Assembly (NCBI RefSeq): GCF_024223415.1
Contig: NZ_CP100500.1
DNA from: Escherichia coli
GTDB lineage: Bacteria; Pseudomonadota; Gammaproteobacteria; Enterobacterales; Enterobacteriaceae
DNA length: 64,000 nucleotides
Direction: 5' to 3' (one strand)
How positions within the stretch are numbered: position 1 is the first letter of the stretch; each line of letters opens with the position of its first letter. A program made the position numbers and the translations under genes. Shown here piece after piece: positions 44,582-46,673 of this stretch. The notes beneath the pieces are model-generated. The model did no database searches, was not told the origin of the DNA, and worked only from the letters and a program-made list of their open reading frames with translations.

Positions 44582-45031
44582 TCAGGCTTTTACCTGCTGG
44601 TAATGGCTGACTTTAAACAGTCGGCGGCAATAATCGAGGAAGTAGCCATAAACCGCCCCCATCAACATCGAAACAACGATGTTTGAACTGACCGCCGCCA
44701 TAATCTGATGCCAGTCTGCGCCCACCACTAACAAGATCGCCACATACACCGGTGACTGGAACGTCACATAAGCCAGGATATCCGCCAGATTTTTTATCCA
44801 GCCCGACGGGCTAACTTTGCGTGCCGCGCGCATAAACAGATCGCGGTACATACCGTATGGCCATGCAATTAAGATGTTCACCGGAATCGCTACCAATCTG
44901 GAATAAAAAGACTGTTCGAAGCTCATTCCGGAGAGGAAAACTTCAATACACATGTTCACGACAGAACAGTAAACAACCATCGCGAACGTATCTGCAACTG
45001 CATGACGCAAGCGTGACTGCGGTGAGAACAT
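44582..45031 (-). CDS. alaE: L-alanine exporter AlaE
   Basis: 149 aa membrane protein. Confidence 0.88.
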
Positions 45032-45697
45032 GCTAATGCTCCTTAATAAAAGCGTAATGGGATGTTAATGGAGATGAAAGCAGTGGATCTCATTGCCATC
45101 TGCATTTTCTCATAGCGTATATCGCTGGCTATGACTAATCAATTAGTGAAAAATTTTTATTTAGTCAGTTTTTGTAGATAAAATATTCCGTAACGGCTCG
45201 TTTTTTGTACATTGTGGGTTTTTACATGCCGATATGATTTATTTTCAATTAAATCAATTAGATATGACCTTGCCTTTAATTTCACTAATGAAAGTTTGGG
45301 GTGAGGTAACGCTATAAGCGTAGAGAATTCGGTGTATGTCGTGACCGGGTCATTTACAGCATTTTTTATGCCAGAAAATGTACATTAACAGCAGAAAGCA
45401 CCAGTGAGGGGTGTTTTCTTTTATTCTATTATATTGCATTTTTATTCACTTCGGTTTTGTCAGGCTTGCGGAATTAGCGAGCATAGAGCGCCACTCTGTT
45501 CACCAATAACCTAAATTACTCATCAAAATGGCTAATATATAATCTTGAAATTATTCTGAGAGTTTCAGAAAATAACAGCTGAAATAATCTCGCGCAGGAC
45601 TGTAAATAGATTAAATTTTGTGGAAATATAATAAGTGATCGCTTACACTACGCGACGAAATACTTTTTTGTTTTGGCGTTAAAAGGTTTTCTTTATT

Positions 45698-46102
45698 ATG
45701 TCCGTAATGTTACAAAGTTTAAATAACATTCGCACCCTCCGTGCGATGGCTCGCGAATTCTCCATTGACGTTCTTGAAGAAATGCTCGAAAAATTCAGGG
45801 TTGTCACTAAAGAAAGACGTGAAGAAGAAGAACAGCAGCAGCGTGAACTGGCAGAGCGCCAGGAAAAAATTAGCACCTGGCTGGAGCTGATGAAAGCTGA
45901 CGGAATTAATCCGGAAGAGTTATTGGGTAATAGCTCTGCTGCTGCACCACGCGCTGGTAAAAAACGCCAGCCGCGTCCGGCGAAATATAAATTCACCGAT
46001 GTTAACGGTGAAACTAAAACCTGGACCGGTCAGGGCCGTACACCGAAGCCAATTGCTCAGGCGCTGGCAGAAGGTAAATCTCTCGACGATTTCCTGATCT
46101 AA
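45698..46102 (+). CDS. stpA: H-NS paralogue StpA
   Basis: 134 aa; H-NS-like N-terminal coiled coil and C-terminal [12 protein letters not shown]-binding motif. Confidence 0.95.
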
Positions 46103-46148: not shown

Positions 46149-46673
46149 TCAAGCTCGTTGGTTCCACGGCATCTTATCTAACAACCTTGCCATTCCACAA
46201 AAACCGCTGATTCCTGCAAACAGTAACCCGGCACCAACAAAGCCACTTAATAAGAAGAAACCGCTATTTACGGTATAACCCAGTACAACGCCGATTAATA
46301 TTAAACCACCCGCAGCGATCTGCACCTGGCGCATTAACGGCAAGGGTTGAGATTTATTTACCGCTACTGGCAATCCTGCTTTTTTCCAGCCATCAATCCC
46401 ATCTTCGAGTAAAAAGATTTCTGCGGGGGCGGCAATCGCTGCTAATTTATCGGCATTATTACTGGTGCGTTTACCTGCCTGGCAGTGGAATATAATTTGC
46501 TCGCGACGTAATTTAGCCGGGAGACCTGACTGTTCCAGCACGGATAATGGAGCCAGATCTGCTTCAGGAATATGTTCACGAAGATATTCATCAGCGTCAC
46601 GAATATCGATTAACTTTGCGCCGCGTGCGATTAATTCTTGTGCATCATGCGGCGAAATGGTTGTCAAAGCCAT
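46149..46673 (-). CDS. ygaP: rhodanese-domain inner membrane sulfurtransferase YgaP
   Basis: 174 aa; rhodanese active-site Cys (HCQAGKR) and C-terminal TM helices. Confidence 0.88.

Follow-up and report, generated by a model that had tools for sequence, protein, structure and literature searches.

The long AT-rich gap between alaE and stpA in an Escherichia coli genome matches the known divergent control region of the two genes

The stretch 45032-45697 of the window (the whole 64,000-nt stretch of Escherichia coli DNA that was analysed) is, judging from its sequence and its neighbours, the divergent stpA–alaE control region of E. coli, which is already known. It is very probable that the whole gap is a control region shared by stpA and alaE, composed of three zones, regulated by Lrp and H-NS, and devoid of any extra gene. 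The gap is ordinary, and its reading as a target of nucleoid proteins has already been published. Its discovery value is small, as it is a textbook-type divergent control region and already a model case of DNA bridging by Lrp. The longest core gap of the window can be explained without a hidden gene, and it can be divided into two promoters with one leader each, a conserved upstream array, and a freely evolving spacer. The features are listed in Table 1.

The distance from the start codon of alaE to that of stpA is 666 bp, and the length of 667 bp given in an earlier note on this DNA was wrong. The same note placed the gap upstream of stpA. This is true of stpA, but not as the sole target, since the gap lies equally upstream of the divergent alaE. 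The flanking genes are divergent, the region is homologous to its K-12 counterpart, and two promoters face outward, all as expected for a member of the stpA–alaE region. A 901-bp query around the gap matched 5,419 of the 5,426 complete E. coli genomes, and the flanks were always annotated as alaE and stpA. At least 80% of the query is present in 5,416 of the 5,426 genomes, with the gap lying between the two genes. The K-12 RefSeq annotation has zero features between b2669 (stpA) and b2670 (alaE).

The GC content is 34.4% in the gap and 50.8% over the 64-kb window, and the earlier description of the gap as strongly AT-rich was correct. An equal or higher AT content was found in 2.2% of the 666-bp windows, and all the others lie within an island at 55-60 kb. 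The remaining intergenic gaps of the window have a pooled GC content of 42%, with several at 32-37%. AT-richness alone is ordinary; what sets the gap apart is its length. Gap lengths were ranked on the annotation of a strain that is 99.9% identical, and by this ranking the alaE-stpA gap is indeed the longest non-coding stretch in the core part of the window, as had been claimed. The runner-up is the 355-bp gap between nrdF and proV, while a longer gap (758 bp) is found outside the core, in the degenerate ypjCB/tRNA-Ile island. It had also been stated that the gap holds no ORF of 60 aa or more, and the largest ORF wholly within 45032-45697 has 42 aa. Internal tandem or long repeats and mobile-element remnants were considered and dropped, as the gap has short repeats only.

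Table 1. Features of the stpA–alaE region and its flanks, in window coordinates.
Feature	Position	Strand	Basis
alaE CDS (L-alanine exporter), left flank	44582..45031	-	149-aa ORF, E. coli annotation
alaE 5′ UTR, 78 nt, start G45109	45032..45109	-	K-12 start 2799086, transferred
20-aa upstream ORF in the alaE leader	45043..45105	-	ORF comparison
Conserved alaE upstream block	45112..45266		identity 0.6-0.97 across non-Escherichia genera, gapless
alaE core promoter (proposed): -10 TACGCT 45114-45119, 17-bp spacer, -35 TTGATT 45137-45142	45114..45142	-	hexamers, mapped start
Variable AT-rich centre, 37% GC, zero recorded transcripts	45272..45610		cross-genus alignment
Terminator-like hairpin then T-run, strain-specific	45393..45419	+	terminator scan, folding
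stpA core promoter (proposed): -35 TGGAAA 45621-45626, 17-bp spacer, -10 TACACT 45644-45649	45621..45656	+	distance to mapped start
stpA 5′ UTR, 41 nt, start G45657	45657..45697	+	K-12 start 2798537, K-12 alignment
stpA CDS (H-NS paralogue), right flank	45698..46102	+	134-aa ORF, E. coli annotation
ygaP ORF, second Lrp peak, cooperates with the intergenic peak	46149..46673	-	PMC10127797

Where are the transcripts of the two genes initiated and terminated? The SMRT-Cappable-seq operon tables of K-12 (PMC6131387) give a stpA transcript from 2798537 to 2798047 and an alaE transcript from 2799086 to 2799651, and both starts agree with the known operon starts. No third coordinate lies in the K-12 gap among the entries listed. 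The K-12 starts were carried to the window via the K-12 alignment, and thus the starts given for this strain are transferred ones: G45657 on the plus strand for stpA and the G at 45109 on the minus strand for alaE. The ~547 bp between the two starts have zero recorded transcripts among the K-12 entries listed. As for 3′ ends, the K-12 Term-seq data (PMC7815308) place those near the gap at the stpA terminator and inside stpA. Among the 3′ ends listed, none falls in the gap, and the next one is at 2800533. The end inside the stpA CDS, at around 45950 in the window (K-12 2798243), is a strong one of the "internal" class. The transcript evidence covers K-12 under a few growth conditions. Spurious or condition-specific transcripts are possible in the gap, for example in hns mutants. 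The earlier note had held that its proposal of a small gene or sRNA would fall if the stpA 5′ UTR were the only transcription or translation signal. Another signal is present in the gap, and its cause is ordinary, since 78 nt are occupied by the alaE 5′ UTR.

Is the architecture of the gap shared by other genera? I scanned one genome per species with AlaE and obtained 80 loci, in 58 of which stpA is the divergent neighbour. The stpA–alaE gap is always long and AT-rich (475-789 bp and 31-43% GC in 58/58 Enterobacteriaceae loci). In the alignment of the 58 loci, sequence conservation is limited to the two promoter-proximal ends. On the alaE side, the alignment is gapless from 45032 to ~45266, with peak conservation at 45112-45190. 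At the stpA end, conservation spans 45612-45697 and is found around CTGGAAATATAA, the -10 pattern TAnnnT, and the leader. The centre between these ends (45272-45610) is gap-rich, with a cross-genus identity of 0.04-0.46 and a length of 144-459 bp. An alignment of the 901-bp region from seven E. coli genomes has 50 variable sites, of which 35 fall within 45260-45499. By these alignments the ~340-bp centre turns over fast; it probably encodes nothing.

Conserved ends with a free AT-rich middle give a modest hint that what is maintained is length and composition, not sequence. The centre might then be a protein-coated spacer that selection keeps long and AT-rich wherever stpA neighbours alaE, which I regard as rather unlikely. 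Such a spacer would govern the geometry of Lrp bridges and of H-NS/StpA filaments, and would let both promoters answer one regulator in opposite ways. Selection on the length and AT-richness of the centre is the sole mildly novel idea that remains; as a lesser variant, the Escherichia-restricted 20-codon ORF of the alaE leader may be a young translated regulatory ORF.

Some loci depart from the common arrangement. In Kosakonia and some other genera (e.g., loci L046, L049, L054, and L059), stpA is not adjacent to alaE, and in the loci without an adjacent stpA the nearest mechanical ORF of at least 80 aa upstream of alaE is often >800 bp away. Since an ORF-free stretch persists where stpA is absent beside alaE, the long upstream region may be a property of alaE and not of stpA. 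In E. coli QL57EC (L088:1924-3000), an IS1-family element lies beside a truncated alaE whose N-terminus is missing. The locus has lost about half of the stpA-alaE gap but retains stpA with its proximal promoter. It is a rare case in which the control module of alaE has been deleted naturally. In Citrobacter amalonaticus (L011:2866-3000), a GC-rich insertion of ~120 bp directly upstream of alaE replaces the usual leader and promoter-proximal sequence. The insertion ends in …CCTGAAGTATAACGAGTATA, which is similar to the terminus of the enterobacterial ERIC/IRU repeat, and the locus has no Rfam match.

The alaE-proximal end is the larger of the two conserved modules. The alaE Shine-Dalgarno sequence AAGGAG is located at 45039-45044, and there is no indel relative to K-12 across the stretch of the alaE 5′ UTR. 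The alaE promoter hexamers follow the patterns TAnnCT and TTGnTA with a constant spacing in 57/58 related loci, while the start site is only 5 nt after the proposed -10, nearer than usual. A perfect 14-bp palindrome, ACTAATCAATTAGT, overlaps the -35 at 45134-45147, and nearly all genera retain it as (A/G)CTA(A/G)TTGnTAGT. Its form suggests a site for a dimeric regulator, and a regulator assignment was not found for it in the literature. The conserved upstream block contains an invariant A/T block, AAAAATTTTTATTTA, at 45149-45163. Two kinds of repeats are also present in this block: TTTTTGTA(G/C)AT occurs at 45169 and 45202 with a spacing of 33 bp, and AATCAATTAG occurs at 45137 and 45252 with a spacing of 115 bp. 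Motif spacing of ~33 bp is typical of Lrp arrays, and for this reason I infer that the repeated motifs of 45112-45266 are a putative Lrp-binding array.

In Enterobacter, Lelliottia, and Leclercia, a C/A-rich stretch, CAAACAAACCAACCTAAAGCACTA, is conserved in the alaE 5′ UTR (e.g., L026:2930-2960). The E. coli alaE leader keeps only the CACT core of this stretch. CAAACAAACCAACCTAAAGCACTA resembles C/A-rich sRNA targets or translational enhancer elements. GcvB control via a C/A-rich alaE leader was considered and dropped, as no paper links alaE and GcvB mechanistically.

Small proteins encoded in the gap were also searched for. There are seven ORFs of at least 20 aa, and none of them is kept outside E. 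coli and its closest relatives in the Escherichia alignment. The one in the alaE leader, a 20-codon ORF, could be a translated leader peptide that couples or tunes alaE translation. It lies entirely inside the mapped alaE 5′ UTR, its stop codon TAA overlaps the AAGGAG of alaE, and its frame is kept in E. coli, locus L004, and E. albertii despite changes at 10/20 residues in E. albertii. However, a leader peptide is very unlikely. The AUG comes 4 nt after the 5′ end of the alaE transcript and has no Shine-Dalgarno sequence. A stop codon and a 6-nt deletion shorten the ORF to 5 codons in three other Escherichia lineages, and Citrobacter, Salmonella, Enterobacter, and Klebsiella lack the ORF. No conserved RNA structure, of the attenuator type or otherwise, was detected in the alaE leader across 27 sequences, and the consensus pairs show no covariation. 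The supplement of one small-ORF ribosome-profiling study has no stpA or alaE entry. The 20-codon ORF is probably not functional. A leader-peptide attenuator at alaE was rejected separately, because there is no conserved structure and no T-run terminator, and the upstream ORF is not found across genera.

The earlier note had also raised the possibility of an unannotated sRNA or small gene in the gap, which is unsupported: no Rfam match, extra start, 3′ end, or conserved ORF was found. Neither the window nor 10 related loci gave anything near an Rfam threshold, and the promoter-like sites in the gap number three, compared with 3.3±1.8 in shuffles. It had been noted that no recognisable terminator is visible. 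A hairpin with a T-run does exist at 45393-45419, but it is strain-specific. Its 10-bp stem and T-rich tail, folding at -12.5 kcal/mol (z=-2.65) in the window, are what would speak for an unannotated plus-strand sRNA in the centre that ends at this position. Such an sRNA is extremely unlikely, as no promoter-like site lies upstream of the hairpin, no start site is found there among the K-12 entries listed, and no Term-seq 3′ end is found at the K-12 equivalent among those listed (PMC7815308). The upper stem rests on lineage-private substitutions. One substitution relative to K-12 completes the stem in the window, and the hairpin is weaker in K-12. In other E. coli, non-compensated substitutions break the upper stem, leaving a mismatched hairpin (-7.4 kcal/mol, z=-1.1), and other Escherichia have no such hairpin. 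Polymorphism in the gap is also highest where the hairpin lies. The hairpin is probably fortuitous.

A small membrane protein encoded by the hydrophobic 32-codon ORF at 45411-45509 on the plus strand (MFSFILLYCIFIHF... in K-12), which is open in 7/7 E. coli sequences with an ATG start in 6/7, has an almost negligible probability: the window has a GTG start with a purine-rich stretch abutting the start codon at zero spacing, 5/32 residues differ between two E. coli strains and purifying selection is thus not apparent, other Escherichia have a broken or unrelated frame, T-rich DNA gives Phe/Ile/Leu-rich ORFs by chance, and no start site is nearby among the K-12 entries listed.

The stpA-proximal end is a compact module in which the promoter is followed directly by the short leader. 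As an aside, a 105-codon ORF on the minus strand (45679-45996) is antisense to stpA and overlaps the gap by 19 nt. This mechanical ORF is unannotated in every genome inspected.

Phased A/T tracts had been reported for the gap as a whole, but they were not borne out globally. Over the whole gap, the periodic AA/TT signal at 10-11.5 bp does not exceed that of dinucleotide shuffles (p=0.29), and the best sub-region, 45032-45250, reaches p=0.06. Curvature was predicted with the Bolshoy-Trifonov wedge model, which was checked on synthetic phased and unphased A-tracts. The mean curvature of the gap is in the top 0.7% of the window in this model. When compared with composition-matched shuffles, neither the mean (p=0.13) nor the maximum (p=0.19) stands out, while strongly curved positions are in excess (51 versus 11.6±11.4, p=0.007). 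Predicted curvature peaks are located near 45174-45200, 45359, 45522, and 45610, and the conserved alaE upstream block has one at 45152-45211. Since only the count of strongly curved positions exceeds the shuffles, the gap is predicted to have several locally curved segments and no regular phasing.

The suggestion of a nucleoid-protein-regulated promoter is borne out by the literature (PMC10127797, PMC3946193, PMC4668568). Lrp ChIP-seq revealed a double peak, with one peak in the stpA-alaE gap and the other inside ygaP, and removal of the ygaP peak lowered the Lrp-mediated activation of stpA >5-fold (PMC10127797). In reporter assays, the activation of stpA is Lrp-dependent and alaE is Lrp-regulated. 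The repression of alaE in minimal medium is slight. When leucine, isoleucine, and valine are supplied, a single Lrp peak remains and alaE is strongly activated. Atomic force microscopy (AFM) showed that purified Lrp bridges the stpA-alaE fragment and that leucine abolishes the bridging (all PMC10127797). The induction of alaE by L-alanine and L-leucine via Lrp is cited in another paper (PMC6801825). The stpA/alaE spacer is labelled 'HNS' in a published promoter table (PMC3946193), and a further paper describes stpA as silenced by H-NS and as dependent on Lrp in minimal medium (PMC4668568). Neither gene is mentioned in the Kroner preprint or the microproteome paper. In the gap itself, a scan for the Lrp consensus gave four matches, each with three mismatches, and a scan for the H-NS motif gave one match with two mismatches. 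Both results are no more than the AT-rich composition gives. Since the matches are weak and explained by composition, the placement of the binding sites to the base pair remains inferential.

Taken together, the shared control region very probably works as follows. The first zone, the alaE-proximal ~235 bp, carries the 78-nt leader, a sigma-70 promoter, and ~150 bp of conserved A/T-rich repeats. The second zone, the stpA-proximal ~85 bp, carries a promoter and the 41-nt leader, and the third is the fast-evolving AT-rich centre of ~340 bp. As shown in the literature, Lrp on the gap and on the ygaP site bridges both in minimal medium, so that stpA is activated and alaE is slightly repressed. Leucine (and alanine too, according to the literature) dissolves the Lrp bridge, and the residual Lrp strongly activates alaE. 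H-NS silences stpA. The conserved repeats with a spacing of ~33 bp are candidates for the Lrp sites, and the AT-rich, locally curved DNA may be the substrate of silencing by H-NS and possibly StpA.

The closest known system is the K-12 locus, stpA (b2669)–alaE (b2670), which has the same flanking genes in the same orientation. The mean column identity between the K-12 gap and that of the window is ~98% over the gap and its flanks, with two 1-nt indels only, and the promoter hexamers around the mapped start sites are identical. K-12 differs by ~20 substitutions, nearly all of which are central, while one adjoins the alaE start site. The K-12 stpA leader is 42 nt because its T-run is one T longer than that of the window. 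The Lrp multi-site regions of dadAX, ilvIH, and oppA have paired Lrp peaks, a leucine response, and cooperative bridging as at stpA-alaE, and stpA-alaE was handled together with dadAX and oppA in one study (PMC10127797). In contrast to the Lrp arrays of dadAX, ilvIH, and oppA, the Lrp sites of stpA-alaE are putative and their consensus matches are weak. The gap also resembles H-NS-silenced regions of the proU type in its low GC content, its 'HNS' mark (PMC3946193), and its predicted curved segments. The proU (proV) locus is in the same window, and the GC content is 37.5% upstream of proV compared with 34% for stpA-alaE. Unlike proU, the stpA-alaE gap is much longer, has two divergent promoters, and has a single weak match to the high-affinity H-NS motif.
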